Positions 996 to 53,599 of a stretch of 64,000 bases of DNA are shown here, piece after piece. Under the pieces are notes generated by a model. That model did no database searches and had not been told where the DNA came from. It was given only the letters and a program-made list of their open reading frames with translations. The stretch spans positions 4,340,001-4,404,000 of the forward strand of contig NW_027141093.1 in the NCBI RefSeq assembly GCF_036365525.1, given 5' to 3'. Source of the DNA: Heterodontus francisci (lineage: Eukaryota). Made by a program: the position numbers and the translations under genes. Position 1 is the first letter of the stretch; each line of letters starts with the position of its first letter.

Positions 996-1559
996 AGAAC
1001 AGGATGTCTGGCAGATTCAGTGTGAGACGATAACACTGCCGGGTAAAAGCCACTTTCCAACTCCAATCTTAACACAGGAGATTCCCCAAACAGCTGCAGT
1101 AAGGTGCTGTAAACTGCTGGAAGCGCATGTGTGTGGAAATGGTGATGTTACTGAGGAGGTTTCTTGGTATAGAATGGACTGTGTTTCGGTGGGAATATTA
1201 CTGAGTGTTAATTGTAGCGGGACCATATTTAAAAACTCTGTCTTTCTGGAAAGCCTTGAAAGGTCGAGTCTGGAAGGGTTTGCGTGGAGAGCTGGGTTTC
1301 GGTTCGACTGTTAATAAAGGGTTTGAAATTGGCAGCCCGGAGGAAACAGGAGGTGGAGCTGAAAGATAAGGGGCCGTTCTCTCTCTGTCTGTCACTCTGG
1401 GTGTCTCCTTCCCTCTCGCTCTCTGTTTAATCTTCACTCTTGTCTCCTCCCCTCCCTGCACTCACTCTGCCTTTCTCAGTCCGGGCGGCCTGTAAAAAAG
1501 AAGGAGGCTGACGGAATCAGTCTCTTTTATTGTGCACTGATTTGAGGCAAGAATTATCA
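996..1559 (+). promoter_or_regulatory. H4 upstream/promoter region and 5'UTR of unit A, ending at the A of the disrupted ATG
   Basis: Colinear with 51145-51719, which leads directly into an H4 ATG (gaattatcA here vs gaatcatcATG there). Confidence 0.85.
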
Positions 1560-2203
1560 GGGTGGCTGTTGTGGGGAAGAGACGGTCGCCCACCTCCTCC
1601 TGGAATGTGTCTTTGCAAAGCAGGTGTGGAAAGGGATGCAGTGGTTTTTGTCGAGGTTCATCCCAAGCAGCTCTAGAACACAGGAGTCTGTGCCCTACGG
1701 GCTGTTCCCAGGGACGCACACCGAGACAAACATCAACTGCTGCTGGAGGACTATCAATTCGGTGAAAGACGCCCTTTGGTCTGCCCGAAACTTGCTGGTC
1801 TTCCAGCGCAAAGAGTTGTCCACGACCGAATGTTGCAGACTGGCACATTCCAAGGTCCAGGACTACGTGGTGAGGGACGCACAAAAGCTTGGGGCAGCCA
1901 CAGCAAAGGCTCAATGAGGAAAGACCACTGTGTAAGGTCCACCCACCAAGCTGAGCGGAGGGGCTGGATCCATGGGAAACCCCTCGAACCTATCGGGAAA
2001 ATTTTGTGTGCTGTAAATGTAGAAATGTATATGGCATGACAATGAAATGGAAGAGTTGTGAGGCAACTCGTGATTGTATAGAAGGAAACTGATCACCTTT
2101 GCACTGTTTGTATTTTTTGACTTGATGCTGTTTTAAATTGTTTGGGAATGTAATTTTTACAGATTTTTATGAATAAAGTATATTTTGAAAAGTAAAAAAA
2201 AAA
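1560..2203 (+). mobile_element. Tx1-clade LINE, 5'-truncated copy Y, inserted in the H4 start codon
   Basis: ORF2 C-terminal zinc-knuckle region, 3'UTR, AATAAA and poly(A) ending at 2203, followed by H4 sequence GTCTGGCAG. Confidence 0.9.
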
Positions 2204-2212
2204 GTCTGGCAG

Positions 2213-4400
2213 TATACCAGAGTATGGTCCTGGTCGGCAGCATATTAGAATCCATGAGGAAAGGCATCATCACCCTCATCTACAAGCGGAAGGGGGAGGG
2301 GGCCGAAATCAGAAATTGGCGGCCCATCTCACTGCTTAACATCGACTACAAGATTCTGTCAAAAGTCATAGCCAGTCGAGTCAAGTCTGCTCTGGAGTTG
2401 GTGATTGACCCTGATCAGACCTGTACTATATTAGGCAGGAAGATCTCTGATAGTCTCGCGCTATTCAGGGATACGATCACCTATGTATGGGACAGGAGGG
2501 TGGCACCTGCCTCATCAGCCTGGACCAGGAGAAGGCTTTTGATAGGATATCGCACACCTACATGATGGACGTACTTTCCAATATGGTGTTTGGGGAGGGA
2601 ATCTGCAATTGGATCAAACTGCTCTACACAAACATCAGTAGCGCAGTCTCAATCAATGGGTGGGAATCAGAAAGTTTCTCGATCCAATCTGGAGTCAGGC
2701 AGGGCTGTCCTCTCTCCCCTGTCTTGTTTGTTTGCTGTATTGAACCCTTTTCTGAGTCTATTAGGAAGAATGCGAGTATCAGAAGGGTAACAATCCCAGG
2801 CAGTGGAGGCACTCAGGTTAAAACCTCCCTGTACATGAATAACGTCGCCATTTTCTGCTTGAACCCGCTGCCTGTGCGCAGACTGATGAGCATCTGTGAC
2901 CAGCTCGAACTGGCCTCGGGAGCCAATGTTAAACACGGCAAGAGCGAGGCCATGTTCTTTGGGAACTCAGCTGACCGATCCTTTGTCCCCTTCACCATTA
3001 GGTCAGACTACCTGAAGGTGCTGGGGTATGGTTTGGAAGGGCTGGGGCGTGCACCAAAACCTGGGAGGAACGAGTAGCCAGGGTACAACATAAGCTGAAC
3101 ATGTGGGAGCAGCGATCTCTCTCTATTGTGTCAGGTTACTGTACGTGGTGCAGGTCTGGCTCATACTGCACTCCTACACTGTGGTGATCACCTGAGCCAT
3201 TTTCCGTTTCATCTGGGGATCCAAAATGGACCAGGTCCCGAGGAACACGATGTTCAATCCTCTGGAGAAGGGCGGGAAAAATGTACCCAACATCGCCCTC
3301 ATCCTGATGGTTACCGTTGTGTGCGGCTGGATCAAGCTGTGTGTAGACCTCCAGTACGCAAACTCCAAGTGTCACTCCGTGCTGAGGTTCTATCTGTCCC
3401 CGGTGTTGCGAAGGATGGGCCTGGTCGCATTGCCATGGAACGCTCCATCCAGTTGGACTGTGCCGTACGTAACACCTATCCTTCATGGAAAAGTTTCTGC
3501 GGAAAAACACCTTTGACCACCAATCCATCAGGCACTGGTCTGCACAGAATGTTCTCAAGACCCTATGGGAAAAGAAGATGGTGGATCCTGTCGGATGGTT
3601 TCCCGAGCAGACTTCCAAAGTCATTTGGCGGAATGCCCCATCACCAGAACTTTCAAACAAGCACCAAGATGTAGCTTGGCTGATGGTGAGAAGAGCCCTC
3701 CCCGTCGGATCCTTCCTGCATGCCCGAAGTCTCACCCCCTCTGCACAATGCCCTCGAGATGGCTGTGGTGGGGAAGAGATGGTTGCCCACCTCTTTCTGG
3801 AATGTGTCTTTGCAAAGCAGGTGTGGAAAGAGATGCAATGGTTTTTGTCGAGGTTCATCCCAAGCAGCTCTGTAGCACAGGGGTCTGTGCTCTACGGGCT
3901 GTTCCCAGGGACGCACACCGAGATAAACATCAACTGCTGCTGGAAGACTATCAATTCGTTGAAAGATGCTCTTTGCTCTGCCCGAAACTTGCTGGTCTTC
4001 CAGCGCAAAGAGTTGTCCACGACCGAATGTTGCAGACTGGCACATTCCAAGGTCCAGGACTACGTGGTGAGGGACGCACAAAAGCTTGGGGCAGCCACAG
4101 CAAAGGCTCAATGAGGAAAGACCACTGTGTAAGGTCCACCCACCAAGCTGAGCGGAGGGGCTGGATCCATGGGAAACCCCTCGAACCTATCGGGAAAATT
4201 TTGTGTGCTGTAAATGTAGAAATGTATATGGCATGACAATGAAATGGAAGAGTTGTGAGGCAACTCGTGATTGTATAGAAGGAAACTGATCACCTTTGCA
4301 CTGTTTGTATTTTTTGACTTGATGCTGTTTTAAATTGTTTGGGAATGTAATTTTTACAGATTTTTATGAATAAAGTATATTTTGAAAAGTAAAAAAAAAA
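2213..4400 (+). mobile_element. Tx1-clade LINE tandem copy 2 (X body with Y tail), frameshifted RT
   Basis: RT motifs NWRPISLLNIDYKILSK, DQEKAFD, SGVRQGCPLSP, YMNN (for YMDD); CPRDGCGGEEMVAHLFLEC knuckle; poly(A). Confidence 0.92.
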
Positions 4401-4409
4401 GTCTGGCAG

Positions 4410-6597
4410 TATACCAGAGTATGGTCCTGGTCGGCAGCATATTAGAATCCATGAGGAAAGGCATCATCACCCTCATCTACAAGCGGAAGGGGGAGGGGGC
4501 CGAAATCAGAAATTGGCGGCCCATCTCACTGCTTAACATCGACTACAAGATTCTGTCAAAAGTCATAGCCAGTCGAGTCAAGTCTGCTCTGGAGTTGGTG
4601 ATTGACCCTGATCAGACCTGTACTATACCAGGCAGGAAGATCTCTGATAGTCTCGCGCTACTCAGGGATACGATCACCTATGTATGGGACAGGAGGGTGG
4701 CACCTGCCTCATCAGCCTGGACCAGGAGAAGGCTTTTGATAGGATATCGCACACCTACATGATGGACGTACTTTCCAATATGGTGTTTGGGGAGGGAATC
4801 TGCAATTGGATCAAACTGCTCTACACAAACATCAGTAGCGCAGTCTCAATCAATGGGTGGGAATCAGAAAGTTTCTCGATCCAATCTGGTGTCAGGCAGG
4901 GCTGTCCTCTCTCCCCTGTCTTGTTTGTTTGCAGTATTGAACCCTTTTCTGAGTCTATTAGGAAGAATGCGAGTATCAGAAGGGTAACAATCCCAGGCAG
5001 TTTAGGCACGCAGGTTAAAACCTCCCTGTACATGAATGACGTCGCTATTTTCTGCTTGAACCCGCTGCCTGTGCGCAGACTGATGAGCATCTGTGACCAG
5101 CTCGAACTGGCCTCGGGAGCCAATGTTAAACACGGCAAGAGCGAGGCCATGTTCTTTGGGAACTCAGCTGACCGATCCTTTGTCCCCTTCACCATTAGGT
5201 CAGACTACCTGAAGGTGCTGGGGTATGGTTCGGAAGGGCTGGGGCGTGCACCAAAACCTGGGAGGAACGAGTAGCCAGGGTACAACATAAGCTGAACATG
5301 TGGGAGCAGCGATCTCTCTCCATTGTGTCAGGTTACTGTACGTGGTGCAGGTCTGGCTCATACTGCACTCCTGCACTGTGGTGATCACCTGAGCAATTTT
5401 CCGTTTCATCTGGGGATCCAAAATGGACCAGGTCCCGAGGAACACGTTGTTCAATCCTCTGGAGAAGGGCGGGAAAAATGTACCCAACATCGCCCTCATC
5501 CTGATGGCTACCGTTGTGTGCGGCTGGATCAAGCTGAGTGTAGACCTCCAGTACGCAAACTCCAAGTGTCACTCCGTGCTGAGGTTCTATCTTCCCCGGT
5601 GTTGCGAAGGATGGGCCTGGTCATATTGCCGTGGAACGCTCCATCCAGTTGGACTGTGCCGTACGTAACACCTATCCTTCATGGAAACGTTTCTGTGGAA
5701 AAACACCTTTGACCACCAATCCATCAGGCACTGGTCTGCACAGAATGTTCTCAAGACCCTATGGGAAAAGAAGATGGTGGATCCTGTCGGATGGTTTCCC
5801 GAGCAGACTTCCAAAGTCATTTGGCGGAATGCCCCATCACCAGAACTTTCAAACAAGCACCAAGATGTAGCTTGGCTGATGGTGAGAAGAGCCCTCCCCG
5901 TCAGATCCTTCCTGCATGCCCGAAGTCTCACCCCCTCTGCACAATGCCCTCGAGATGGCTGTGGTGGGGAAGAGATGGTTTCCCACCTCTTTCTGGAATG
6001 TGTCTTTGCAAAGCAGGTGTGGAAAGAGATGCAATGGTTTTTGTCGAGGTTCATCCCAAGCAGCTCTGTAGCACAGGGGTCTGTGCTCTACGGGCTGTTC
6101 CCAGGGACGCACACCGAGATAAACATCAACTGCTGCTGGAAGACTATCAATTCGTTGAAAGATGATCTTTGCTCTGCCCGAAACTTGCTGGTCTTCCAGC
6201 GCAAAGAGTTGTCCACGACCGAATGTTGCAGACTGGCACATTCCAAGGTCCAGGACTACGTGGTGAGGGACGCACAAAAGCTTGGGGCAGCCACAGCAAA
6301 GGCTCAATGAGGAAAGACCACTGTGTAAGGTCCACCCACCAAGCTGAGCGGAGGGGCTGGATCCATGGGAAACCCCTCGAACCTATCGGGAAAATTTTGT
6401 GTGCTGTAAATGTAGAAATGTATATGGCATGACAATGAAATGGAAGAGTTGTGAGGCAACTCGTGATTGTATAGAAGGAAACTGATCACCTTTGCACTGT
6501 TTGTATTTTTTGACTTGATGCTGTTTTAAATTGTTTGGGAATGTAATTTTTACAGATTTTTATGAATAAAGTATATTTTGAAAAGTAAAAAAAAAAA
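4410..6597 (+). mobile_element. Tx1-clade LINE tandem copy 3 (X body with Y tail)
   Basis: Near-identical to copy 2 at a 2197-bp offset, with private SNPs and a 1-bp deletion near 5590. Confidence 0.92.
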
Positions 6598-6600
6598 GTC

Positions 6601-9141
<2,541 letters not shown>

Positions 9142-10142
9142 TGACCTGGAAACGGGAGCTGGGATAGGCTGTTCAGAACTGTCTGGAATAAATCTGTGCT
9201 GTATTCGGGTATAAAACTGGAATCCCCGAAATTGACATTTCATTTGCAGCAAGGATGTGCAGTGGATTTGATTTTCTAAACGGGCTGTGTAAACAGTGCC
9301 CGAGGCTCTGCAGTTAGTTATTTCCCCCGTCCACACATGACCTCAGTGCAAAGCCACATCACTCCTCCAGAATCACTCATTGTTTTCATAGAATTTCAAA
9401 ATGATTTCGCTGCAATGAGGGAATCCGGGAGTTCTGCAGCAGCCGTTGAATCGGTCACTGGAACCAGACCCACTTGTGATGTTACTTTTCACGAGACGGT
9501 GTTTCCTGCACTGAAACTGACAGGGTTTGTGAAACTGATCAGTTTCAGCTCATTCATTCAGGGACCTGGAATTCCCGCAGTTTGAGCCCGCGCGAACCCA
9601 TGCCCACTTCTGATTGGTCACCCTCTTCCCATTCGCATTTCTTAACCAATCGCAGAGCCTCGAATTAGGGAAAATGCAGCAAATCATTGGCTTAAATTGT
9701 CGAAATTGGCAGAACGTTTGAATTCGAAAAAGGCGCCAATTTCAGTGTCGGCAAAAAGCGAATTACTGGAAAATCTATTTAAAGTTGTTCGTAAAATATT
9801 TTCCACCAACCTTTAAAAACCTTTCTTTATTCCGCTATTATCGCCACAAATTCCTGGCGCTATTTTACGCACAGCTTTAACCTCTCATTTCCCCCCCCAC
9901 TGCTTATCTGTAACCGGCGGTAAAAGACTCCATTCAGCAATCCTTCAGGGACCAATAACTCAAACTCGGTGTGAAAAGGAATAAATTATACTATTGGTAG
10001 TTCCCCTTCACACAGGGATCAGGGGAACAGTGAGAAGCCACTGACATAGTTGCTCATAAACATTTTAAATAGTTCCTATTCTGTTCTGTTACTGACATGC
10101 TGGAATCAGACAGTAATCAGCCCTTTCACAGAGACTGTGGGT

Positions 10143-10158
10143 GGCTCTGAAAAGAGTC
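10143..10158 (-). promoter_or_regulatory. Histone 3' stem-loop of H2A-A (stem mismatch)
   Basis: GACTCT-TTTC-AGAGCC on the minus strand. Confidence 0.8.
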
Positions 10159-10167
10159 TTTGGTTTA

Positions 10168-10602
<435 letters not shown>

Positions 10603-11337
10603 TTACTTTACTTAAAGACTGAGAACTCTCCTCAATGGTCGGTACTTAATTCACCTCATTTGCCTATATTCTTCACCAATCAGGTCACTGACCAACAGAA
10701 GAGGGCGGGATTTACCCGCCACGACATCAGAAGCAGAGAATTTGTCAATTTCAAAAAGCCCGCCAATTTCATCGTCGGAAAGGAGCGGATTAAAATAAAT
10801 GTCATCCTTAGTCAAAGATTTAAAGTCCCTTCTCTTGATTTTGTTTTATTCAACTTGTAAAATGTTATTTAAATTGTGACTCATTCTACAATCGCTTTCA
10901 AACTGTCACGGGTGGGGCATTCATTGGCCTGAAGTGAAATACTCAGTTTAGCTTTGAATCAGAGCCCAGTGTCCTTCTCTGAAAAGAGGGAGCCGGATCA
11001 AGTCCTCAAACGGCCCTTAACTTGCTCTACAATAATCCCATCCCAGGCTGTTACACTGCGGAGAGTTGCTGTTAATAAAATGATTAATCAGTGAAGGGAT
11101 GAAGGTCTAATCCTTACCGCTGAAATCAGCTGTTAATGCGGTCATTCAGGGGCTGTGAAAAACGAGAATAAGAGCAGCTTTAAGCAAAACAAGTGAAGGC
11201 GGGTGATCAGATTATGGGTTCATGTTCGGTTAATAACAGGAGATACAAACACAGCATTGGGATCGTTATCATATTATACATTGTCTTCAAGTGATTTCAT
11301 AGAGATGTCGGATGCAGCTTTTTCAGAGATTGTTGGT

Positions 11338-11353
11338 GGCTCTTAAAAGAGCC
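11338..11353 (-). promoter_or_regulatory. Histone 3' stem-loop of H2B-A
   Basis: GGCTCT-TTTA-AGAGCC on the minus strand. Confidence 0.88.
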
Positions 11354-11390
11354 GTTGTGTTTGATCTGTTTTTCAGTCCATTGTGCAGTT

Positions 11391-11997
11391 TCACTTGGAG
11401 CTGACGTACTTGGTCCCTTCCGACACGGCGTGCTTGGCCAGCTCCCTGGGCAGCAGCAGGCGCACGGCGGTCTGGATCTCCCGGAGCTGATGGTTGTTGT
11501 AAGGGGCCAGGCGGGAAGCATCACCCGCGATACGCTCGAAAACATCGTTCACAAACGAGTTCATGATGCTCATGGCCTTGGAGGAGATGCCGGTCTCGGG
11601 GTGAACCTGCTTCATCACTTTGTAGATGTAGATGGAGTAACTCTCCTTCCTGCACTTCTTGCCGCCCTTTGTTGATGGTTTATTTAAGGTTTTCTTGGCG
11701 CCCTTCTTAGGAGCTGCTTTCTTCTCTTTTTTTATTTCCAAAATAGACTTTATTCATAAAAATCTGTTAAAAATACATTGCCAAAGTGTTTCAAACAGCA
11801 CCAAAAAATACAAACATTGCAAGGGAGATCAGGTTCCTTCAGCACAATCATGAGTTGCTTCACAACCCTTCCATTTCACATTTGTCATGCCAATTACATT
11901 TTTACATTTACAGCAAATGAAAATTTTCCCGATACAGTTCGAGGGGTTTCCCAGGGGTACAGCCCCTCAGTTCAGCTTGGTGGGGGGACCTTACCAT
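11391..11997 (-). pseudogene. H2B: Histone H2B pseudogene interrupted after the ATG by Tx1; several internal deletions
   Basis: ATG at 11997-11995 in the same leader as intact paralogs; body [25 protein letters not shown] resumes at 11726. Confidence 0.93.
11727..11994 (-). mobile_element. Tx1-clade 3'UTR-only insertion (268 bp) at the H2B start
   Basis: Starts gtaaggtccccccacc (at the ORF2 stop) and ends tttatgaataaagtctattttggaaat-A7; homologous to ~8510-8780. Confidence 0.92.
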
Positions 11998-15230: not shown

Positions 15231-16289
15231 TTCTTTCTATATGTTATCTCTTTCCCTTTTGACTGTTTGCTGTGAAACTTTCAGCATTGTGCTCAGTTCT
15301 TTGTGCAGTTCTGTTTTCTTTATTTGAAGTAATGCAAATAGTATCCGGAAAAATCAGACAGAAATACTGCTCAATGTAGTGTAATATATAACAGGGCACA
15401 TTTACAAATATCAGATCAATGTAGTAAACATTTTTATTAAGAATTGATTACTTTTATTTTCAGTATAAAAATGTGAAGCAATATGAGTTTATTACAAAGT
15501 TTATTACCTCACATTACCTGTTTATTAACCCTGACAGACTGTGCCAATTTCTGCTTCTATGTTGCAGTTCTCACTTTCAGCTAGCAAATGTCAGCAATCT
15601 GTGATACAGTACAGATCAGACAGTCAAAACAACATGCAATAATTGTTCAGATTATGTAGGACAGGTGGGATTTAGAAATACTGGGAATGGAGATGAGTTG
15701 TTATTACACTGAGTTTGCCCAAAGATTAGAGACACCATTGTGGCAAATCAGTCTGTTGTCCAGTACATGAGAATGAGAATCATTCTGTATTTGTGGCTAT
15801 CTGTAAGTCTCTATTACTGAGTGGGAGTGTGGGATTCATGCTGCATTGGTCAGTCTCTGGTACAAAGTGTGATATTCACTCTGAATGTATAAGGCTCTGG
15901 AACTGTTTGTGTGTGTGGAATTCATTCTGTATCTGTCAATCTCTGGTACTATATGTGAATGTGGCATATATGTTATAGCTCTCAGTGTCACTGTATGTGT
16001 GTGTGGGTTTCATTTTGATATCTGTCAGTCTCTGTTTCTGTACACGACTGTCAGATTCATACTGTGCCAAAATGTCCCTGATGCTGTATGTGACTGTGTG
16101 ATTCATTCTGTATCTGTCATTCCCTGGTACTATGTGTCAGTATAGACTCATTCTGTATCCCAGTCACATGCACTCTATTTGAGAGTGCGATTAATTCTGC
16201 ACCTTTAAGTCACTGGTATTATATGTAAGTGTTGGATTTCTGTTGGATCTCTCAGTTATTGTTTCTGTTGTGAATTTGGGATGGACATA

Positions 16290-16965
16290 ACATCTGTCAG
16301 TCTCTGGTACTGCCTGTGAGTGTGTGTTTTGTTCAGTATCTGTCAGTCTCAGGTACTGTCCGCGTGTGTACTTTTTGTTCAATATTTTCAGTTTCTGGTA
16401 CTGCCTGTGAGTGTAGGTTATGTTCAATGTCTGTCAGTCTCTGGCACTGCCTGTGAGTGTAGGTTATGTTCAGTATCTGTCAGTCTCTGGTACTTCCTGT
16501 GAGTGTGGGTTTTGTTCAGTATCTGTTAGTCTCTGGTACTTCCTGTGAGTGTGGGTTTTGTTCAGTATCTGTCAGTCTCTGGCACTGCCTGTGAGTGTAG
16601 GTTATGTTCAATGTCTGTCAGTCTCTGGCACTGCCTATGAGTGTAGGTTATGTTCAGTATCTGTCAGTCTCTGGTACTGCCTGTGAGTGTTGGTTTTGTT
16701 CAGTATCTGTCAGTCTCTGGTACTTCCTGTGAGTGTGGGTTTTGTTCAGTATCTGTCAGTCTCTGGTACTGCCTGTGAGTGTGGGTTTTGTTCAGTATCT
16801 GTCAGTCTCTGTTATTTCCTGTGAGTGTGAGTTTTGTTCAGCATCTGTCAGTCTCTGGTACTGCCTGTGAGTGTGGGTTTTGTTCAGTATCTGTCAGTCT
16901 CTGGTACTGCCTGTGAGTGTGAGTTTTGTTCAGTATCTGTCAGTCTCTGGTACTGCCTGTGTGTG
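16290..16965. repeat. 46-bp minisatellite, about 15 copies
   Basis: Unit gtctctggtactgcctgtgagtgtgggttttgttcagtatctgtca; degenerate copies extend from ~15770. Confidence 0.92.
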
Positions 16966-17974
16966 GGATGCATTCAGTAGCCATTAATCTCTGGGTTAGT
17001 TTGTCATTCTGGATTCACTCTACACAGAATTACATAGTATTTACAGCACAGTGACAGGCTTTTCTGCCCAAGTGCTGGTAGTTCCAATGAGGTTACTCCA
17101 ACCCTACTTCATCTAATCCTATCAGCAAATCTCTCAAATTGTTTCTGCCTCATTTAATCATTTAGCTTGACGTTAAATGTAACACTGTTCAGTAGCTCAA
17201 GTGCTGTCAAAGCAGGGTAAAGAAGATTCCCCTGAGTTATTTATTTAATTTATTACTGACTATTTCATATCGACAGCTTTGGACTCCACCACAAGTGGGA
17301 AACATCTCTACCTCTACCCTAACAAAACCCTTCATATTATTCAATGCTTCCATTAGGTGACCACTCAGAGAAAAGAGCCCAGGCTTGTTCAATAGTTTGA
17401 ACTCCTGTGGAACATATAGTTCGGTTTGCATTTATGGAATAAATACTGTATCTCAGTCTGAAACTGTATGTGATTTTAGATTGGCATATAATGTGTAGCT
17501 CAGGCTGCAACAAATAACTGAGACAATATCTGTCACTCGAAGACTATAGTTTTGTGGAGTGCTATGTTATCTGTCATTCAGTCTGTTCTGATAGAATATA
17601 TAATGATACCTTTAAGTCTGAGGCAATGGGGGGTCAGGTACAGGGTCCGGGGGTGCCCAATTGGGGCGGTTGGAGCTTTGAGGGTGGCCCTCCATGGGGA
17701 TCAGGGTGCCTAATCAGGAGGACCCCCACCCCCCCCCCGCAACCCGCAAGAAAGACGCCTGGTTTTATCAGGCAGGGTTCTTGGTGCCTTTGCCACACTG
17801 CCTCCCCGCCCCCAACCCAACCGAGGATAAAATACCTGCAGCAGAGAGAGGAGGCCCATAAGTGGCTGTTAATTGGCCAATTAAGGGCCTTGATTGGCCT
17901 GGGGCAGACAGGCTGTTTCTCCCCACCGCCGTTCCATGTAATATTGCAGTGGGTGTGGGAGGGGGTCAGAAAAT

Positions 17975-28482: not shown

Positions 28483-30542
28483 GAGATGAGGTGGAGTGTT
28501 GCGGCAAGGATGATGGAAAAGAGCATTGGTGCGATGACACAGCCTTGCTCGACCCCAGTTTGCATTGAGATTGGGTCAGTGGTAGGTCCGTTGGGAAGGA
28601 TTACAGCTTGCACGTCATCATGCAGTCGTCAGAGGATGATGATGAATTTCTCTGGGCAGCCAAATTTGAGGACGTTCCATAATCCCTCCTGGTTGGTAGA
28701 GTCGAAGGCCTTTGTCAGGTCAGAGAAGACCAGGTATAAAGGTTGCTGCTGCTCCCTACATTTTCTTGGAGTTGTCTTGCTTTGAAGATCATGTCCATTG
28801 TGCTACTTGATGGACAGAATCCACATTGTGATTCCAGTAGGAGCTCTTCAGCCACGGGGAGGACGCAGTTGAGAAGGACTCTTGTGATGGCCTTCCCTGT
28901 GGCGGACAGCAGGGATACCCCTCTGTAGTTACCACAGTCAGTCTTGTCACCTTCTTTAAAGATGATCACTATTACAGTGTCTCGGAGATCCCCTGTCATG
29001 CTCTCCTCCTTCCAAATGAGGGAAATGAGACCATGTATTTGAGTCAAGAGTGCTTCTCTGCCAGATTTTAGAATTTTGATGGGAATTCCATCTATGCCAG
29101 CGGCCTTATTGTTTTTTAGCTGTCAGATGGCCTTTTCAATCTCTGTCAGCCTGGGATTGTGCTGACAGCACGGTGGGTAGCATGCTGTGGAATGCGGTCA
29201 AGGGTACTCGCATCAAGGACTGAGTCACAATTGAGGAGATCTTCAAAGTGCTCCTTGCAACGAGTGCAGACTGCCTATATGTCCTTGATCAGTGTCACTC
29301 CATTCTTTTGCTCTCAGTAGGGTAGGTCCTTGGCTGCGTGGGCCGTGAATGGTCTTGACTGTGCTGAAGAATCCACACATGTCGTGGCTGTCAGCAAGTT
29401 TTTGTTGTTCCAGTGTTCTTTCAGCCCATCAGCTGTTCTTTAGGTCGCATGTGAAGATCTACTCTACAGGACGAGTGGGAAACTCTTTAACCTATGTTGC
29501 CTCCAGTCCAGATGTAAGGCCACTCCAACCTCTGTCATCAAGCTGCAGTATGCTGACGACGCCTGCGTATGTGCACACTCAGAGGCCATGCGTCAAACCC
29601 TGATCAATGCATTCACGGAGGTGTATGAAATAATTGGCCTTAAGCAAAACATCCAGAAGACAAAGGTCCTCTACCAGCCTGCTCCCCGACACTGCCCCTC
29701 GACTGTCAAGATCCACAGCGAACCACTGGGCAATGTGGATCACTGTTCATACCTTGGGAACCTCCTGTTACCAAGGGCAGATATCGACGATGACACGCAG
29801 CATCACGTCTAGTGTGTCAGGGCAGATTTCAGTCATCTGAGGAATAGAATGTTTGATGACAAAGAACTCAAATCAGCCACCAAGCTCATGGTTGACATGA
29901 CTGCAGTGTTACCTGCCCTCCTGTATGTGTCAGAAACATGGATACTGTACAGCAGACATCTCAAAGCCCTGGAGAGATATTACCGGTGGTGATTCCGCAA
30001 GATCCTGCAAATTCAGTTGCAGGACAGGCGCTGCAATATCAGTGTCCTCTCTCAGGCCAACATCCCCAGTATCGAGACACTGGTCATGGCTAGTCAGTTA
30101 TGTTGGACGGGCCACATCATCCCCATGCCTGATGCCAGAGTCCCAAAACAAGCTTTCTACTCTGAACTCCATCAGGGCAAGAAGCTACCAGGAGGGCAGA
30201 AGAAACAATACAAGAATTTCCTTCAAGACATCCTGAAAAAACGTGACATCTGCACTGATTCATGGGCATCTCTTGCCTGAGAACACCCAAAATGGAAAAG
30301 AAGCATGCGCGAAGGTGCCAGCCAGTTTGAAATTCGTCGACATGCCCAGGAAGCAACCAAATGCAAACAGTGGAAGGAGTATTTGGAAATTGGAGAATCC
30401 CATTCACCCACTTCACCATGCACCATCTGCCCCACCTGTGGCCGAGTGTGTGGATCAAGAATTGGACTATTCAGTTGCCTAAGGAACCACAACCCTGGAG
30501 TGGAAGAAAGTCATCCTCATTCCCGAGGGAGTTCCGAAGAAG
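28483..30542 (+). mobile_element. Second RTE-clade LINE, 5'-inverted
   Basis: TGVEQGCVIAPMLF and DCGNYRGVSLL on minus; QYADD..CPTCGRVCGSRIGLFS on plus; gaagaag tail. Confidence 0.85.
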
Positions 30543-30549
30543 TTGTTTA

Positions 30550-31500
30550 GTGTGACATCCATTCTGCATCTGTCAGTCTCTGGTTTTGAATATGAGTGTG
30601 GGATTCATTCAGTATCTGTCAGTCCCTTGTACTGTGTTTGAGTGCAGTTTTCAGGCTTTATCTATTAGTATCTTGTGTGTGAGTTCTGTATTCATCTGCA
30701 TCTTTCAACCTCTAACACATTATTTGAGTTTTGTAGTCATTCTGAACTGACCCTTGGTAATGTATGTGTGATTGAGGTTGATCGTTTACTTGTTAATCTG
30801 TTGTACTGTACATGAGTGTGAAATTCATTCTGTATAACTCTATCTCTGTTCCTGTTGTGGGTGTATGATTCATTCTGTATGCTCCATCTCTGGTATCGCA
30901 TATATGTGTGGTATCAATTCCATTTCTGTCATTTCTGGTACTGTATGTGAGTGTTTACTTCATTCTGTAACTATCAGTCTCTGGCACGGTCTGCACATTC
31001 TGGATCCATTTTGTAACTATCAGTCTCTCGCAGAGTGTGAATGTGGAATTAATTTTGTATCTCTCCATCTCTAGTGTCATGTGTAAATTTGGAGTTCATT
31101 CTGAATTGGTCATTGGTACTGGATCTGCCATTCTCTAGTACAGTTTGTGAATGTGGGATTCGTTCTGTACCTGTCACTCACTGGTACTTTGTGAAAGTGT
31201 GCGATACATTCTGTATCTGTCGGCCTCTGGTAGTGTGTGTGATTGTGGGATGAATTAATTAGCAGTCAGTGGTGCTCGATGTGAATGTGGAAATCATTCT
31301 GTAACTCAGTCTGATATTGTTCTGTGAGGGTGGGAATTACATGTATCTTTCAATCCCTGGTGCTGTGAGTGAGCATGGGATTCATTCTGTACCTGTCAGT
31401 CATACTGTATGTATCTGTGGGATTTATCCTGTACCTTTCAGTCGCTGGTATTTTGTACGAAAGTGGGAATAATTCTAGATCCACTGCCACACACTGGTTG
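30550..31500. repeat. Degenerate 46-bp minisatellite family
   Basis: Recurrent gggattcattctgta-ctgtcagtc-ctggtactgt motifs. Confidence 0.65.
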
Positions 31501-32620: not shown

Positions 32621-35599
32621 ATGTGCGTGCAGTTTTTAGATTGTGTCTATCAGTGTCTGTTACTCTGAGTTTTGGACTCTTTCTCAATCTCTCAGTGCTA
32701 CTATTTGTGTGTTAGGTTGCTTTAGATGACTCAGGCTGAGGTACTGTCAGTGTGTGCAGTAATCAACCTAAACCTTTCAGCATCTGGCACTGAGCATGTG
32801 TTTCAAAATCACTCTCTGACTGTCAGTGTCTGGTACTCTGTGTGATTGTGGGATTCATTATATAACCTTCCGTCCCTGGGACTGGTGCAAGTCTGGAGTT
32901 ATTCTACATAAAAATTCAGCACAGCAACAGGCCACTGATGTGGCAGGTTTTAAGCAGACAGGTAGATACATAAATCCTGTTTGAGGTTTTGCCTAGTATT
33001 AAATAGTATCTGTCACTGTGAACACAATAGTGAAATATAATGTATCCTACAATCTGATACAGGATTGATGTGCAAGTGTAACTCAGGCTGTACTCATCAA
33101 TTTGATCAGTGCCATTCAGTCTAACTCTGAGTGAGAATCTTGGACTTGCATGTAAAATGAGCTCAGTCTGGAATTGTACAGTATCTTCCATCTGACACTA
33201 TATGAGGTTTTAGGACTGGTACGTAATTTATAGCTCAGACTATACTAATCAAATTTATATTGTATCTTTTAGTTTCACAATCCGGATGAGTTTTAAAGTG
33301 GAATCTGAGTTTGTACCTCTGCAATCTGATTATGCACTTGAGATTTGTATCTAATGTATATGTCTGGACACATTATCGGAATTAATACTGATAATAAAGT
33401 CAAAACCCGGGTAAATATTAGGCTGGTATTTAACTTGAATCTCGGAGCACTTCATTGAGATTATTTCTGTAACTTTGAAACAGCAACCATGTGTCAGTTC
33501 TATGTGTATTTAATTTGTAGCTGAGGTTGCTCTATTGTGGGATTGACACACTGATAATTTGATAGTGGCTGAGAATTTGGACTGGGATTTGTGTATCCTC
33601 CTGTCAGTGGTATTGAGTTGGGGTGACATGAAAACAACGTGCGTCTCTCCTGCTCCATTTGATTGATGGATTGAAAATGTGTCTCTGGATCTATTTCTGC
33701 TGTCTGAGACTGTGGAACTGATGACCTGTCTGTGTCTCTGCGCTCTGTGAGTGATAATGTACGGACTGTGTGTGAGAAGGAGCTGGTGACACTCTTCCAT
33801 GTAACTTGGTGGAGGAAACATCACATTTATTTTGGTTCATTCAATTATTTGCCTGTTTGAACAAAAGAATGTTTATAATTCAAATACTGGTGAGGTAGAA
33901 GATACAGGATTTTAATGAATTTAATCTCTCATGATAATTATAAACGCCCACAAAGGAAGCCCAGCCATACAAATATTATCATTGTTTGACTGCACTGCAG
34001 TAACAGTTTCTTCCCATTCTGTCTCCATCCCCTTATCCACACACAACCCGGGAATGGCCTCTCACTTCCCACACTCACTCCATGTTCCGGGACCAGTTCC
34101 TGCTACACTCCGCCTCTTACAAACAGCCCTCGCCTGCCCTTGAACTTGCCCCGGACTCGATGCTGATCTCTCAGTCCATTCGTGGACACGCTCCCAAAGC
34201 GATGTGCTGCTGCAAGGAGGCTGCTGTTTGGTCCCTTCCACTGGGACCTGGATCTCTCCATTGCCGGCTGTTTCAAACCATCTTCTTCCGCTCACAGGCA
34301 GTGCTGGGGGAGGGGAGCGCAGGCGCAGATTCAGGCAACAATTCCGCAAACAGAAAGATGGAAAACGTCCGGCACAGAATGAGGCCATTCGGCCCATCAT
34401 GTCCGTGCCAGCGCAAAGAGAGCGATCCAGCCTGATCCCACAGTTTCTTGTTATTGGACAGTGAAGTGTGGAAACAGAAACGGACAGTCAGGATGTGGGG
34501 ATTTACACAAAGAGAATCTAGTACAGGCACTAGGTGAGAAGTGTGAAGGACACATTTTAAACAGCGGCTGTTTGGTTTCGCTTGAACGGTTAGACCATGG
34601 GAGCGGGAACTGGAAATCTGACCTGTGTAAAAGTCCCTGTTCCGTCGGTCAGTCCCATTCATGGCCCAGTGGATTGTTTCTGGATGTCATTTAATTGTTG
34701 TAAAATGGCCAAAGCCTCTGGTATGCAGTAGCTGGGGGCTGCAGGACTGCAGTGGAATCAGACACTGACTCTGTTTGTATTGCTGGGTTTCCTTTGTGAT
34801 TGTTCATAATGATTATTCATTGAAAAATTGTTTTGGTCTCTCTTGGAACTTCCACCACACCTCTTCCTGAATTATAATAAATACATTTCCTTTCTACAGG
34901 CAAATACTTGATGGAAGCAGAATAAATGTCGTGATTCCTCGACACGCGGAAGTGCAGCCAGCTCCTCACACACAGTAAGTACAGTATCACTCACAGAGAG
35001 CAGAGACATCAATTCCAAAATCACCGCCAGCAGAAGTAGTCAGACTGGCACTGATCCCACGTTCCAGAGACCAACAGTCAATCCAACAGTCACACAGAGC
35101 AGGAAAGAGTGAACTTGTTTCCATTTCACCCCAACTCAGTCCCACTGACAGGTAGATACATCAATCCCAGTCCAAAATCACACCCACTATCAGATTGCAA
35201 GACACTGTGTCACTCTCACAAGACAGCATCCTGAACTACAAATTCAATGTCAGATGGAACAGCCAAACAGTACCTGATTGTAAAGTACAGAATTAATCTC
35301 AATAATGTACCCAGACTGCAGACTGAGCTCCATGTTACACACCATTCCACAAATTTCACAATTAGTCAGAGTGGAAGACACAGTATTAATTCCATTATTG
35401 CAATCTGAATGAACCTGACCATTACATACTAGGACATAAAACATATTGTAAGATGAAAGGACACAGACCTGAAATGTTAATTCTGTTTCTCTCTCCACAT
35501 ACGCTGCCTGAACTGTTGATTATTTTGAGCATTTTTGTTTTTTTAAACTTCATATTTCCTGAATCTGCAGAATTTTGCTTTTATTTTAGAGTGAAAGAA

Positions 35600-36770
35600 A
35601 CATTGCATTGTGAGGTGAGAGTGACTGCCCTTGACATCAAGGCAACCTTTGACCATTAATGGCACCAAGGAGCCCTAGCAAAACTAGTGTAAATGGGAAT
35701 CATGGCAAAACTCTCTGCTGGTTGGAGTCATACCTAGCACTAAGGAAGATGGCTGTGGTTGTTCAGGTCAATCATCTCAGTCTCAGGACATTACAGCTGG
35801 AATTCCTTAGGCTCGTGTTCTAGGCCCAACCATCTTCAGCTGCTTCATCAATGACCTTCCCTCCATCACAAGGCCGAAAGTGGGGATGTTCACTGATGAT
35901 TGCGCAATGTTCAGCACCATTCATGACTCTTCAGCTACTGAAGCAGCCCGTGCCCAGATGCAGCAAGACCTGGACAACATCCAGGCTTGGGCTGATAAGT
36001 GGCAAGTAACATTCGCGTCAGATAAGTGCCAGGCAATGACCATCTCAAACAAGAGAGAATCTAATCATCTCCTCTTGATGTTCAATGGCATTACCATCAC
36101 TGAATCCCCCACCATCAACATTGGGTGGGGGGGGGGTTACCATTGACCATAAACTGAACTGGACCAGCCACATAAATGCCGTGGCTACAAGAGCAGGTCA
36201 GAGGCGAGGAACTCTGTGGTGAGTAACTTACCTACTGTCTCCCCAAACCTATCCACCATTCACAAGACACAAGTCAGGAGTATGATGGAATACTCTCCAC
36301 TTGCCTGGATGAGTGCCGCTCCAACAACACTCAAGTAGCCTGCTTGATTGCCCCCAAGCACCAGCTTCAACAATCAGCCCATTCACCATTGATGCACAGT
36401 GGCAGCAGTGCGTACCATCTACAAGGTGCACTGCAGCAACGCACAATAGCTCCTTTGACAGTACCTTCCAAACCTGGAACTTCTACTACTGAGGAGGACA
36501 AGGGCAGCAGTTGCAAGGGAACACTACCACTTGCAGATTCCCCTCCAAGCCACACAACATCCTGACTTGGAACTATATCGCCATTCCTTCATTGTCGCTG
36601 GGTAAAAATCCTGGAACTCCCTTCCAAACAGCACTGTTGGTGTTCCTACATCTCAAGAACTGCAGCGGCTCAAGAAGGCAGCTCACCACCACTTTGTCAA
36701 GGGCAATTTGGATTGGGCAATAAATTCTAGCATAGCCAGTGATGCCTACATTCCACAAACAAATGAAAAA
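35600..36770 (+). mobile_element. CR1/L2-group LINE 3' part (copy at 61075-62240)
   Basis: VRVTALDIKATFD; MFTDD..QQDLDNIQAWADKWQVTF. Confidence 0.8.
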
Positions 36771-37665
36771 AGTGAGGAAATAGTGAAGGGCTTTTATAGA
36801 GTACATGGAGACATGTTTCCACTTGTGGTGGCGTCTGAAACAAGAGCCAAAATATAAAATCGTCATTCATAAAACCAATGAGGAATTCATGAAAAATGTA
36901 TTTACGCAGTGAATGGTTCGAATCTGGAATTTGTTATCACAGGGAGAGGTTGGGGTGAATAGTATCGATGCACTGAAGGGGAGGTGGAATAAATGAACAA
37001 TTGTATGTGGAAAAAGGAATCGAGGGATATACATATCGGGCTTCATTTTAAAAAAATTTTTGCATGTGAAGCAGGATGTCTGGAAATATATGTAGAGCAT
37101 AGAGCAGTTGGGACGATCCCAGTGCAGTGTTTTGTCTGGATGGATCTGCCCAGAACACTTGCGATGCAGGAGCTGGGAGCTTCAGTACTTCAGTGGAGGC
37201 AGATAATGACACCGGTTTTCATTTGTGGATGTTCTTAATGATTATTGATTGAGAAATTAAATTGACCTCTTTGATATTATGCACCGCATCTGTTCTTGAG
37301 TTATCAGATATATCTTTTTCTTCATACAGGCAAATACTTGAAGATATTGTGATGAATGTGATGGTTGCTGCACTCGAGGCACAAGGAACAGTGCAGCCAG
37401 CTCCACTCACACACAGTCGGTACATTATCACTCAGAGTGCAGAGGTACAGATAGTTCATCAGTTCCCTGGTCTCAGACTGCAGAAATAGTCAGGCTCACA
37501 TTGATCCCAAGTTCCAGAGACACATTTGCAATCCAACAACCAAACAAAGCAGGAGAGAAAGAGGTTTTTTCCATTTCACCCCGATTGAGTCCCACTGACA
37601 GTCAGATACTTCAATCCCAGGTCAAAATGACACCCACTAGCAGATTGAAATGCAATGTGTCAATA

Positions 37666-38360
37666 TAACAAAGAACAAAGAACAGTACAGCACAGGAACA
37701 GGCCATTCAGCTCTCCAAGCCTGCCTGCCTAAACTAAAACCTTCTGCAGTTCCGGGGTCCGTATCCCTCTATTCTCATCCTATTCATGTATTTGTCAAGA
37801 TGCCTCTTAAACGTCGCTATCGTACCTGCTTCCACCACTTCCCCCGGCAGCAAGTTCCAGGCACTCACCACCCTCTGTGTAAAGAACTTGCCTCGCACAT
37901 CCCCTCTAAACTTTGCCCCTCTCACCTTAAACCTATGTCCCCTAGTAACTGACTCTTCCACCCTGGGAGAAAGATTCTGACTATCCACTCTGTCCATGCC
38001 GCTCATAACTTTGTAAACCTCTATCATGTCGCCCCTCCACCTCCGTCGTTCCAGTGAAAACAATCCGAGTTTATCCAACCTCTCCTCATAGCTAATGCCC
38101 TCCAGACCAGGCAACATCCTGGTAAACCTCTTCTGTACCCTCTCCAAAGCCTCCACGTCCTTCTGGTTGTGTCGCGACCAGAATTGCATGCAATATTCTC
38201 AGTGTGGCCTAACTAAAGTTCTGTACAGCTGCAACATGACTTGCCTATTTTTATACTCTATGCCCCGACCGATGAAGGAAAGCATGCCATATGCGTTCTT
38301 GACTAGCTTATCCACCTTCAGTGACCTGTGGACCTGTACGCCCAGATCTCTCTGCCTGTC
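37666..38360 (-). mobile_element. Relatively young HER1/CR1 LINE 3' insertion
   Basis: Open 151-aa frame ALERVQKRFTRMLPG..LGLFSLERRR; (ttctttg)n tail; absent at the paralogous site ~63100. Confidence 0.88.
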
Positions 38361-38756
38361 AAATATAATGCAGACTGAGCTAGCAATTAAATATCAGATA
38401 GAATTGGCACACGCTACTGATTGAATGGCACAGAATCTAACCTAGTGATGTACCCTGAGATTTAAATTAAATATCATACCCAAAGCTCACACCCATTCAT
38501 TATAAAGGATGTTTAAACATCCCCATAGTGTACCCTGAGATACAAGTTACATACAAGTCCAACATTCATTGCAGTGAATGTTTCAAAGGTGCTGAAAGAT
38601 ATTGTAAGCTGAGACACAAATTAGATACCAGTTCAGACCTCGCCCACACTGTGAAATTGAAAGAGACAGAATCAATTCCATCAGTGTAGATTGATATAAA
38701 CATTATATACCATTCTAAAAAGTGATGCAATATCAAACTAAAATAAAGTATCAATT

Positions 38757-42175: not shown

Positions 42176-45100
42176 TTTTTTTTTTATTTCCAAAATATAC
42201 TTTATTCATAAAGATCTGTAAAAAATACATTACAAAACAGTTCCAAACAGCACCAAGTCAAAAAATACAAACAGTGCAAAGGAGGTCAGTTTCCTTCAAT
42301 ATAGGAGTGAGTTGCCTCACAACCCTTCCATTTCATTTTTCATGCCATATACATCTTATGGCAAACGAAAATTTTCCTGCTGCAGTTTGAGGGGTTTTCC
42401 ATGGATCCAGCCCCTAAGTTCAGCTTGGTGGGGGGAGCTTACATGGTGGTCTTTCCCCATTGAGCCTTTGCTGCGGCTGCCCCAAACTTCAGTGCGTCCC
42501 TCAACACGTAGTCCTGGACCTTGGAGTGTGCCAGTCTGCAACATTCGGTCGTGGACAACTCTTTGCGCTGGAAGACCAGCAAGTCTTTGGCAGACCAAAG
42601 GGTGTCTTTCACCGAATTGATCGTTGTGCAGCAGAAGTTGTGGTTATCTCGGTGTGCGTCCCTGGGAACAGCCCGTAGGGCACAGACTCCTGTGTTACAG
42701 AGCTGCTTGGGATGAACCTCGACAAAAACCACTGCATCTCTTTCCACACCTCCTTTGCAAAGACACAGTCCAGAAGAAGCTGGGCAAGCGTCTCATCCCC
42801 AGCACAGACACTTCGAGGGCATTGTGCGGAGGGGGTGAGACTTCGGGCATGCAGGAAGGACCTGACGGGGAAAGCTCTTCTCACCACCAGCCAAGCTACA
42901 TCTTGGTGCTTCTTTGAAAGTTCTGGTGATGAGGCATTCCGCCAAATGACTTTGGCGGTCTGCTCGGGGAACCATCCGACAGAATCCCCCGACTCCTTTT
43001 CCCGTAGGGCCTTGAGGACATTCCGTGCAGACCACTGCCTGATGAATTGGTGGTAAAAGGTGTTTTCCGCAGAAACTGTTCCACGAAGGATAGGTGGTAC
43101 GGCACAGTCCAACTAGATGGAGCGTTCCACGGCAATGTGACCAGGCCCTTCCTTCACAACACTGGGGACAGATAGAATCTCAGCTCGTAGTGACACTTGG
43201 TGTTGGTGTATTGGGTATCTGCACACAGCTTGATGCAGCCGCACACGAAGGTAGTCATCAGGATGAGGGCCACGTTGGGTACATTTTTCCCGCTCTTGTC
43301 CAGAGATTTGAACACCGTGTCCTTCCGGACCCGGTCCATTTTAGATCTCCAGATGAAGCAGAAAATGGCTCGGGTGACTGCCACAGCACAGGAGTGGGAT
43401 ATGGGCCAGACCTGCGCCACGTGTAGCAACAACGTGAGCGCCTCGCACCTGATGACCAGGTTCTTGCCCACAATGGAGAGAGATCGCTGCCCCCACATTC
43501 CCAACTTTTGTCGTACCTTGGCTACTCGCTCCTCCCATGTTTTGGTGCACGCCCCGGCCCTTCCGAACCATATCCCCAGCACCTTCAGGTCGTCTGACCT
43601 GACGGTGAAGGGGACAAAGGATCGGTCAGCCCAGTTCCCAAAGAACATGGCCTCGCTCTTGCCGTGGTTAACATTGGCTCCTGAGGCCAGTGCGAAATGG
43701 TCGCAGATGCTCATCAGTCTGCGCACAGACAGCGGGTCCGAGCAAAAGACCGCGACGTCATCCATGTACAGGGACGTTTTAGCCTGAGTGCCTCCACTGT
43801 CTGGGATTGTCACCCCTCTTATACTCGCATCCTTCCGAATAGACTCAGCATAGGGTTCAATACAGCAAATAAACAAGAAGGAATAGAGGACAGCCCTGTC
43901 TGACTCCAGATTGGATCAGGAAACTTTCTGATTCCCACCCGTTGATTGAGTCTGTGCTACTGATGTTTATGGAGAGCAGTTTGATCCAATTGCAGATTCC
44001 CTCCCCAAACCCCATTTTGGAAAGTACGTCCATCATGCAGGTGTGCGATATCCTGTCAAAAGCCTTCCAGGCTGATGAGGCAGGTGTCCACCCTCCTGTC
44101 CCGTATGTGGGTGATCGTGTCCCTGAGTAGGTACAGTACAGGTCTGATCAGGGTGGATCACCAACTCCAGAGCAGACTTGATTCGACTGGCTATGACTTT
44201 TGACAGTATCTTGTCGTCAGCATTACCAGTGAGATGGGCCGCCAATTTCTGATTTCTGCCCTCTCCCCCTTCCCTTTGTAGATGAGGGTGATGATGCCTT
44301 TCCTCATGGATTCTGACATGCTGCCGGCTAGGAGCATACTGTCGTATACTTCCAGCAGGTCCGGGCCGACCCAGCCCCACAGGACCAAATACAACTCAAC
44401 CGGTAAGCCGTCGCTTCCGGGAGTTTTACTTATCTCGAAGGACTTGACGGCCTTAGTCAGCTCATCCAGAATTAGCGGTTTGTCCAGTCTCTCCCTCCTG
44501 CTGTCATCTAAGACCTCTGTGATAGATGACAGGAAGGACTGGGAGGCTCTGCTGTCTGTGGGCTTCACGTTATACAGCCCAGCACAAGAGGATTTGCTGA
44601 TCCTTAGTATGTCGGACTGCGAAGACGTTACCGAGCCGTCCTCTTCCTTCAGGCTGCTGATAACAGAGCTCTCTCTGTGTACCTTTTGGAAGAAGTAACA
44701 CGAGCACATCTCATCCTGCTCAATGGAGCGGACTCTGGACCGGAAGATGATCTTGTCGGCCTCTGTGGCAAAGAGCGAGGCCTGCTGGCTCTTCACCTCA
44801 TGAAGGTCCTCCTTGACCTTGACCCCCATCGACTGCAGCCAGAGCAGATTTTTCATACTTTTCTGGAGTCGTGACATTTCCATCAGTCTATCTCTCTCGC
44901 CCTCTGAACCCCTTTGAAGATAAAGAACCTCTTGATGTTCTGCTTGATCGCTTCCCACCAGTGAACTGGAGACTCAAAGGTGGGGTTTCACGTTCCACCA
45001 ACCTTTGTAATCCCTTTTGAGTTCCTCAACATTCTCTGGGGTTTGCAGTGCAGCATTGAGCTTCCATGTCCCCCTGCCAACCCGCTGGTCATCCTGTAAG

Positions 45101-45312
45101 TGAAAGTCAGCCAGTAAGAGGCAATGCTTGGAGAACACCGGCTTGACGTAGGTGGATCTGACCGTGAAACCACGGGACACAAATAGGAAGTCAATCCTGG
45201 AAAGGGCAGACCCGTCCGTTCTTGACCATGTGTATCTATGCTGCGCTCCGTCTGCAGGTTTGCTGAAGACGTCGTGCAGTTTGGCATCTTTTACTGTTTC
45301 TATTAAGAATCT
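42176..45312 (-). mobile_element. Tx1-clade LINE, ~3.1 kb, truncated in the endonuclease domain; not in a histone gene
   Basis: YTWSR..SRIDF..KH..GTWKLN, TPGSDGLPVELY, YMDD, C-terminal knuckle, same 3'UTR and poly(A) as the histone-inserted copies. Confidence 0.92.
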
Positions 45313-45317
45313 GTACA

Positions 45318-51709: not shown

Positions 51710-52030
<321 letters not shown>

Positions 52031-53170
52031 ACAATTTGACCCTTTCCAGCAAACACAAAACAAAGGCTCTTCTAAGAGCCACCCACCGCCTCATAGAGAG
52101 AGCAGTGACCGAGAAATGGGAGCTGGGATAGGCTGTTCAGAACAGTTCAATCACTCTGAAATATTTCAGATTTCCAGCATCCGCAGTAGTTTGCTTTTAA
52201 TTCTTTGTTCAATCAATCTGCTGTGTCCGGGATTAAAAAAAACTGGAATCCCCGAATTTTACATTTCAATTGCAGCAAGGATGTGCAGTGGAATTGATTT
52301 TCTAAACGGGCTGTGTAAACAGCGCCTGAGGCTCTACACTTAGTTATTTCCCCAGTCGACACATGCCCTCAGTAAAAAGCCACATCACTCCTCCAGAATC
52401 ACTCATTGTTTTCATAGAATTTCAAAATGATTTCGCTGCAATGAGGGAATCCGGGAGTTTTGCAGCAGCTGTTGAATCGGTCACTGGAACCAGACCCACT
52501 TGTGATGTTATTTCCCCTGAGACGGTGTTTCCTGCACTGAAACTGACAGGGTTTGTGAAACTGATCAGTTTCTGCTCAATCATTCAGGGACCTGGAATTG
52601 CCACAGCTTGAGCCCGCGCTATCCAGAGCCCATTTCTGATTGGTCACCCACGTCTCATTCACATGTCTTAACCAATCGCAGAGCCTCCAATTAGAAAATA
52701 CAGCAAATCACTGGCTTAAATTGGCAGAAAGTTTGAATTCGAAAAAGGCGCCAATTTCAGTGTCGGAAAGAAGCGAATTAATGGTAAATCTGGCGTTAGT
52801 TTAAAGCTGTTCGTAAAATCGGGCCAGTACTTTGTGCTGATAAAAGCGGAATAAAAAAAGCTTTTGATGGATTATATATATTACGATGTTTTACTCTGTA
52901 ATTTTTTTGTCTACTTATCTGTACATGGCGGTAAGACTCTATCAGCAATCTGTAACGGGACAAATAACTCACTCAGTGTGGAAGTAATAAATTAGACAGG
53001 CTTTGGGGTGACAGTGGCAAATCACTGAAACAGATGCTTAAACATTTGAAATAGTTCTCATTCGGTCCTGTTACTGACATTTTGGAATCAGACAGTAACC
53101 AGCCCTTTCACAGAGACTGTGGGTGGCTCTGAAAAGAGCCTTTGGTTTATTAGGTGACATTTTGGCCGCT

Positions 53171-53599
<429 letters not shown>

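Follow-up and report, generated by a model that had tools for sequence, protein, structure and literature searches.

Two insertions of a Keno-like LINE at one base of a histone H4 start in Heterodontus francisci, and a likely role for distance from the transcription start

The 64,000-nt stretch of DNA analysed here (the window) lies in a cluster of histone genes in the 6.0-Gb genome of Heterodontus francisci; one H4 copy in it is split at its start, at AT|GTCTGGCAG. A preliminary description had proposed that two elements, first X and then Y, landed at this very base by target-primed reverse transcription (TPRT), as is typical of a site-specific element. Are these indeed two events, and what brought both of them to the same nucleotide?

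Along the + strand, a remnant of the H4 promoter and 5' UTR (1301-1558), which is 82.6% identical to the region upstream of another H4 copy (51458-51719) and forms a flank common to loci with X alone and with Y and X, leads to the start codon (1559-1561), now AGG through a later T>G change. Y (1562-2203), a 5'-truncated 3' end of the LINE with poly(A), comes next, followed by the upstream copy of the 9-bp target duplication of X (2204-2212), which is also the 3' junction of Y and overlaps a microhomology with the element. The region 2204-8780, of which 2213-8780 had been taken for a single element X, in fact consists of three head-to-tail 2.2-kb units: unit 1 (2213-4400), unit 2 (4410-6597) and X proper (6601-8780), the first two separated by a duplicated GTCTGGCAG joint (4401-4409) and the last two by the remnant that a 13-bp deletion left of a joint (6598-6600). 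X proper is a 2.2-kb 5'-truncated copy with RT, zf-RVT (by Pfam), 3' UTR and decayed poly(A); the Pfam scan that gave RVT_1 for X-type sequence was made on unit 1. The downstream target copy (8781-8789), the rest of the H4 pseudogene and its stem-loop follow (to 9120). All these features lie on the + strand, as does the empty-site reference, an H4 copy with an unbroken start and an internal stop (51719-52030). An old 3' fragment of a related LINE, about 68% diverged, lies upstream of the H4 promoter (551-913, - strand).

The target copies at 2204-2212 and 8781-8789 are as first described, with poly(A) joined at both, the further copy at 4401-4409 having been missed, and the microhomology at the 5' joint (target CTGGCAG, element CTGGAAG) matches at 6 of 7 positions and is present in an intact copy as well. 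Y had been said to start at 1560, to have removed the T of ATG on insertion and to lack a target duplication. Its start is at 1561/1562, and the T was not lost: six of the eight other loci with Y and X read ATCATG|GTGG, the window and the remaining two carrying the later T>G. Because ATG is intact in those six, the duplication made by Y is 0-1 bp.

Units 1 and 2 are X/Y chimeras, of X type up to 3976 and of Y type from 4067 on, by the numbering of unit 1; the 90 bp in between (3977-4066) are the crossover zone. All 335 sites compared in their tails agree with Y, and their X parts differ at 21-28 of about 1,755 sites (1.2-1.6%). Both units stem from a later tandem duplication, which would have come about by unequal crossover or conversion between Y and X; the combination of Y-identical tails with X parts that are 1.2-1.6% off (2213-6597) suggests conversion, exchange with a paralogous locus or assembly collapse.

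X and Y themselves are separate insertions of different age at the same base of an H4 start. Y and X proper differ at 72 of 634 aligned sites, bearing out the early remark that they differ at many. Among 20 fetched stretches, 7 carry X alone, with ATG kept in 6 of them, and 8 carry Y and X without extra units. Trees built from 58, 90 and 66 copies show the family as a ladder, on which X of both allele types makes up one clade, X proper being sister to the X-only alleles, and Y sits on another rung, in a clade of its own, grouping with younger dispersed copies; as had been supposed, Y is no local duplicate of X. A clade of X and Y is rejected (AU p=1.3e-4), and one of X and V, a copy at an H2A start, is not (AU p=0.06), though X and V sit in different genes. 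Two TPRT insertions at one base are thus supported by the two allele types and by the AU test. A double insertion of X and Y in a single event was also considered and is ruled out by their different ages and by the X-only alleles. Junctions of an element tail with GTCTGG number 578 genome-wide, against 0 for a reversed control, most of them being amplified copies of few events; a search for a second poly(A) insertion at the plain H4 sequence GTCTGGCAGAGG gave 0 matches.

Which element is this? An intact copy residing in a U2 gene (K; L283) encodes an ORF2 of 1136 aa with Exo_endo_phos, RVT_1 and zf-RVT domains, and the 520-aa frame of its ORF1 shows zinc knuckles and RBDs of ZCCHC3 type. An endonuclease of the APE and not the restriction-like kind, joined to RT in ORF2, and a nucleic-acid-binding ORF1 mark an APE-type non-LTR element, and poly(A) 3' ends, 5' truncation and variable target duplications (6-22 bp, called in 29 of the 56 dispersed copies whose 5' end is visible) are those of TPRT. 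Identity to K is 90% for X, 92% for Y, 90% for V and 86.5% for W, a second copy at an H2A start. The only clade-named protein match is Xenopus Tx1 ORF2 (29% over 74%, E 9e-92), which makes a place in the Tx1 clade probable; no named Keno protein was among the matches, and a fragment match at 79% was to a horn-shark protein. Keno is reportedly a U2 snRNA-targeting member of the Tx1 clade. Its 3' junction site in U2 is TCTGTTCTTATCAGTTTAAT (PMC6136364), and at this site, after nt 37 and inside U2 genes recognized by Rfam, we found 240 junctions of the present element, in a search suggested by one U2 flank among 70 dispersed copies. Across 170 kb of U2 array, in regions picked for having the site and with array duplicates included, 42 of 44 3' ends fall at +33 to +39 (29 at the main site and 13 at +33 or +36), the other two at +48 and +58. 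Most U2 genes in these arrays (L281-L297, contig C41) are interrupted, many by intact 5.26-kb copies; the copies carry long poly(A) and some have 5' inversions. The family appears to have been active recently.

At least 9,157 exact matches to the 3' end occur genome-wide, a figure obtained with a different search pattern from that of the 240 U2 junctions. Target-specific elements have been defined as having >20% of flanks on target (PMC4494074); the U2 site appears in 1 of the 70 flanks sampled, all on contig C1, and we therefore call the family Keno-like, relaxed. Taken together, domains and junctions identify the element as a Keno-like LINE, probably of the Tx1 clade, with U2 as its main target and with copies also dispersed by the thousands. 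None of the 70 dispersed 3' flanks begins with GTC, and T, TC and TCT are enriched, TCT opening 7 of them where 1.7 are expected (p=0.0016). A TATA-like motif 60-74 nt upstream was found at 0 of 23 dispersed sites. Eleven of the 70 copies (L036, L041, L054, L213, L215, L216 and L235-L237) were inserted at the head of an older one: they share its orientation and stop no more than 56 nt away from its 5' end, the duplication often spanning the old joint. Z, a dispersed copy in the window (42176-45321, - strand), lies inside another repeat and not in a histone gene. Elsewhere (L069, 5573-6365), a dispersed copy is followed by 22 nt of an H2A start, an A-run and a 16-bp duplication of its own, and looks like a 3' transduction from an H2A-resident copy; at L001 and L004, two copies end at one GTCTGG position of similar sequence, which resembles an antisense relative of the element.

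H4 is not the only histone gene concerned. That H2A starts would also be hit elsewhere had been predicted, and 340 such junctions were found, representing at least two events: W, a full-length copy with a 12-13-bp duplication, and V, a truncated one. Further H2A events are a 50-bp insert at ATG-3 to +1, an insertion at +7 (L380) and a second double hit (L382) with the same anatomy as X and Y. At an H2B start within the window lies U, a copy of the same LINE (11727-11993, - strand; 5' joint at ATG+4, 3' joint at about ATG+10), the same event being found at L065, L070 and L073; H2B shows at least three young classes besides, at +3 to +13, and H3 one event at +1 with a 16-bp duplication. We also scanned for exact matches to element tails, in the sense orientation, at set distances upstream of the histone stem-loop. 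Gaps of 10-325 gave 5 matches, representing one event inside H2B and one in a flank. At about 326-364, for one tail type and with X excluded, all 27 matches lie at H4 ATG+1 and form a third H4 junction class, the comparison covering the tail junctions. Gaps of 365-396 gave 5 matches, all at H2B starts; 410-436 gave 124, of which the 100 listed all lie at H2A +3/+7 or H2B +3 to +13; and 437-499 gave 6, five at the H3 ATG and one in a flank.

A conservative tally comes to 3 events in H4, 6 in H2A (W, V, the 50-bp insert, L380 and two in L382), 4-5 in H2B and 1 in H3; L114, which may share its origin with W, and L384, 92% identical to V, are excluded, L379 and L383 count once, and so do L381, L387 and L388. 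The young H2A and H2B events are told apart by junction, tail and allele, their 5' ends being mostly out of view. At least 13 histone events thus lie at ATG-3 to +13, against one within a reading frame (L210, inside H2B, young and single); for seven events the binomial figure is 1.2e-8, the interval having been chosen after the fact. The copies at histone starts range from 86.5% to 99.3% identity to K. A histone-specific subfamily was considered and rejected: a single clade is excluded (AU p=2.5e-68; 15 rows, with W and the short inserts outside the alignment), and the hits in H2B, H3 and U1 have no common target motif.

U1 genes were searched in the sense orientation after the idea of a positional rule had been noted. 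They gave 175 matches, of which the 100 listed all lie at +40/+41, with one more at +38; a single event, amplified, accounts for most of them. Distinct from it are, among others, an insertion with a 16-bp duplication in a gene whose promoter is intact, and two young copies in tandem, at +38 and +40. No match was found at about +50 to +140 of U1, and none in U4 or U6, where few gene copies make the test a weak one. Histone cap sites had to be inferred from TATA-like and cap-site-like motifs, RNA runs, present only in contig form, having contained no more than 0.14 of the words; on this basis ATG lies at +31 in H4, +34 in H2A, +29 in H2B and +36 in H3, and the histone junctions fall at about +31 to +41 of the inferred start, those in U2 at +33 to +39. 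Because TATA and ATG are 61-65 nt apart in all four histone genes, these alone cannot separate a rule of about 35 nt behind the transcription start from one tied to the start codon, and it is U1 and U2 that carry the argument.

The 5' ends of the element point to the same genes. Older full-length copies have heads of up to 31 nt identical to the U1 5' end (L126-L136; U1 genes at L156-L185), closely followed by 5'-splice-site-like CAGGTAAG/CAGGTAGG, and younger copies have a U2 head, apparently a switch from U1 to U2 within one lineage. The U1 identity of the W head comes from direct comparison, Rfam having given nothing useful on it. Since full-length heads correspond to U1 nt 1-31 or to U2 5' sequence, and one copy carries a 22-nt H2A start, copies resident in snRNA genes and probably in H2A genes may have acted as sources; a full-length master joined at +31 of a U1 gene gave 0 exact matches. 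The U1 head was also considered as an RNA guide: it resembles the H2A start at 14 of 17 positions, but H2B, H3 and the young U2-headed copies do not fit. At L157, L169-L177 and other U1 loci, old, more distantly related Tx1-like fragments (67-78%) follow many of the U1 genes in the same orientation, some 170 bp further downstream.

The preliminary description had read repeat hits at one base as the mark of site-specific TPRT. Two TPRT events at one base there were, but the implied specificity for H4 and H2A sequence is contradicted by U2 as main target, by 70 dispersed flanks of which none begins with GTC and by hits in H2B, H3 and U1 without the motif. Nor does a repeat hit alone prove sequence specificity, since second hits at the 5' joint of an older copy are common anywhere. 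We consider it likely that the hot zone, comprising the H4, H2A, H2B and H3 starts and U1 +38 to +41, is set by distance from the transcription start, with local sequence likely picking the base, and that X and Y fall within it. Against such a positional rule stand the 9,157 exact tail matches, most copies being dispersed, the 23 dispersed sites without a TATA-like motif, the two U2 junctions at +48 and +58, the empty U4 and U6, though a weak test, and the dispersed repeat hits, which amount to re-targeting without a known promoter.

Generic open chromatin would have any very active promoter hit just behind its start, histone and snRNA genes standing out by copy number, and neither shared machinery nor nuclear bodies playing a part. 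All hit genes are indeed multicopy and typically highly transcribed, and the low-copy U4 and U6 show nothing. An open region, however, would suggest a peak broader than the roughly 10 nt seen, and the dispersed sites have no TATA signal, and we find this account unlikely. A slightly poorer prospect is targeting by sequence only, close to the view first taken of the locus and already weakened: an endonuclease tuned to U2 would cut near-cognate T^RTCTG, H4 and H2A starts being multicopy look-alikes. Hits in H2B, H3, U1 and at H2A +7 lack the motif, none of the 70 dispersed flanks begins with GTC, and non-histone GTCTGG junctions (about 8 of the first 100 listed) are near chance by estimate, although U2, H4 and H2A do have T^RTCTG in register, TCT is enriched at dispersed flanks, a second TATCTG in U2 (+58) was used once and two non-histone GTCTGG hits have T upstream. 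Equally doubtful is selection with amplification, whereby insertion is random, hits in frames and snRNA bodies are purged, and clean knock-outs of starts survive and amplify with the cluster. Most counts being amplified copies of few events, and the sole interior hit (L210) being young and single, would fit; yet 5' UTRs, where knock-outs are equally clean, are empty but for the one insert at ATG-3 to +1, U1 +1 to +37 is empty among the 100 matches listed, many histone copies here are pseudogenes, and uniform insertion predicts 0.002-0.02 hits at a given base of about 2,500 H4/H2A starts. Finally, derivation of Y from X by duplication or conversion, or an array that is an assembly artefact, agrees with units 1 and 2, which are duplicates with Y-identical tails and slightly diverged X parts, but is refuted for Y itself by the plain structures at 8 other loci with Y and X and 7 with X only and by the clustering of Y with dispersed copies, and is highly improbable.

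How might distance from the transcription start act? The endonuclease would nick the template strand where DNA lies exposed shortly after the start of these multicopy Pol II genes, whose transcripts are not polyadenylated; this would probably happen in Cajal and histone-locus bodies, at the machinery that snRNA and histone genes share. The preferred base would be that of T^RTCTG (T^ATCTG in U2, T^GTCTG in H4 and H2A), or reflect a weak preference for Y^RT. The promoter would remain upstream after insertion and keep the site a usable target, which would explain Y, and insertion in the sense orientation would hand the element a host promoter. Parts of the literature bear on this: in human cells, genes for snRNAs and histones cluster at Cajal bodies (PMC4802181), and CBC, NELF and LEC are described as serving both gene classes (PMC7462061). 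The latter source also states that pausing is not prevalent on histone genes, which counts against the proposal. Tentatively, and with less confidence than in the hot zone itself, we suggest that the LINE may be led to its targets by transcription machinery that snRNA genes share with replication-dependent histone genes, and may insert in sense about 35 nt behind the start to take over the promoter; the U2 sequence specificity of Keno might then come down to position, with a short motif adding precision, and a TPRT element would show at Pol II genes what Ty3-type targeting is elsewhere.

Ty3 and Ty1 of yeast and TRE of Dictyostelium are known to insert a fixed distance from transcription starts, relying on host machinery and not on sequence. 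Those elements target Pol III genes, and Ty3 and Ty1 use an integrase, whereas the snRNA and histone genes hit in the present case are transcribed by Pol II and any tether would be hypothetical. Keno shares with the present element an APE endonuclease and RT, the 3' junction TCTGTTCTTATCAGTTTAAT after U2 nt 37-38 and tandem copies in U2 genes (PMC6136364, PMC4640811, PMC4494074); the present element differs in being dispersed in thousands of copies and in its repeated hits at U1 +38 to +41 and at four histone starts, which the passages cited do not mention for Keno. Tx1-Mar of crocodilians, also a Keno-related Tx1 element, and SINEU carry heads that derive from U1 or U2 and prefer a shifted target less strictly, but the target described is a Mariner element and the heads are explained there by 5' additions (PMC4494074), whereas here the insertions lie inside U1 and U2 genes with promoters. 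Utopia uses the same U2 site, with tandem insertion and weak specificity in some families, by means of an unrelated, restriction-like endonuclease (PMC4640811). In the literature searched, which covered few subscription journals, neither Keno nor Tx1 was found described at histone starts or at U1 +40; Tx1 targets are listed in the supplements of PMC4494074.

The target choice of APE-type site-specific LINEs is usually attributed to sequence reading by the endonuclease (PMC4494074). Six gene families hit at nearly one distance and without a common motif suggest a second, positional layer of targeting, testable with an element that still has intact copies. The same data offer a simple origin for the U1 and U2 heads that SINEU and Tx1 elements carry, and show one way in which pseudogenes accumulate in histone clusters.

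Several H2A, H2B and H4 copies in the window look like pseudogenes, and its list of open reading frames has no H3 or H1 frame. Arrays of a 46-bp tandem repeat occupy 15841-17077, 30524-31256 and 55938-56661, and segmental duplicates of histone genes with flanking blocks (91-96%) pair 9213-11700 with 52239-54830 and 34036-38660 with 59517-63406. The histone-cluster repeat has been amplified together with a 57-nt U4 fragment (contigs C334, C712, C1047, C1806 and C1960) and with a U1 pseudogene that carries stacked insertions (L360-L365).
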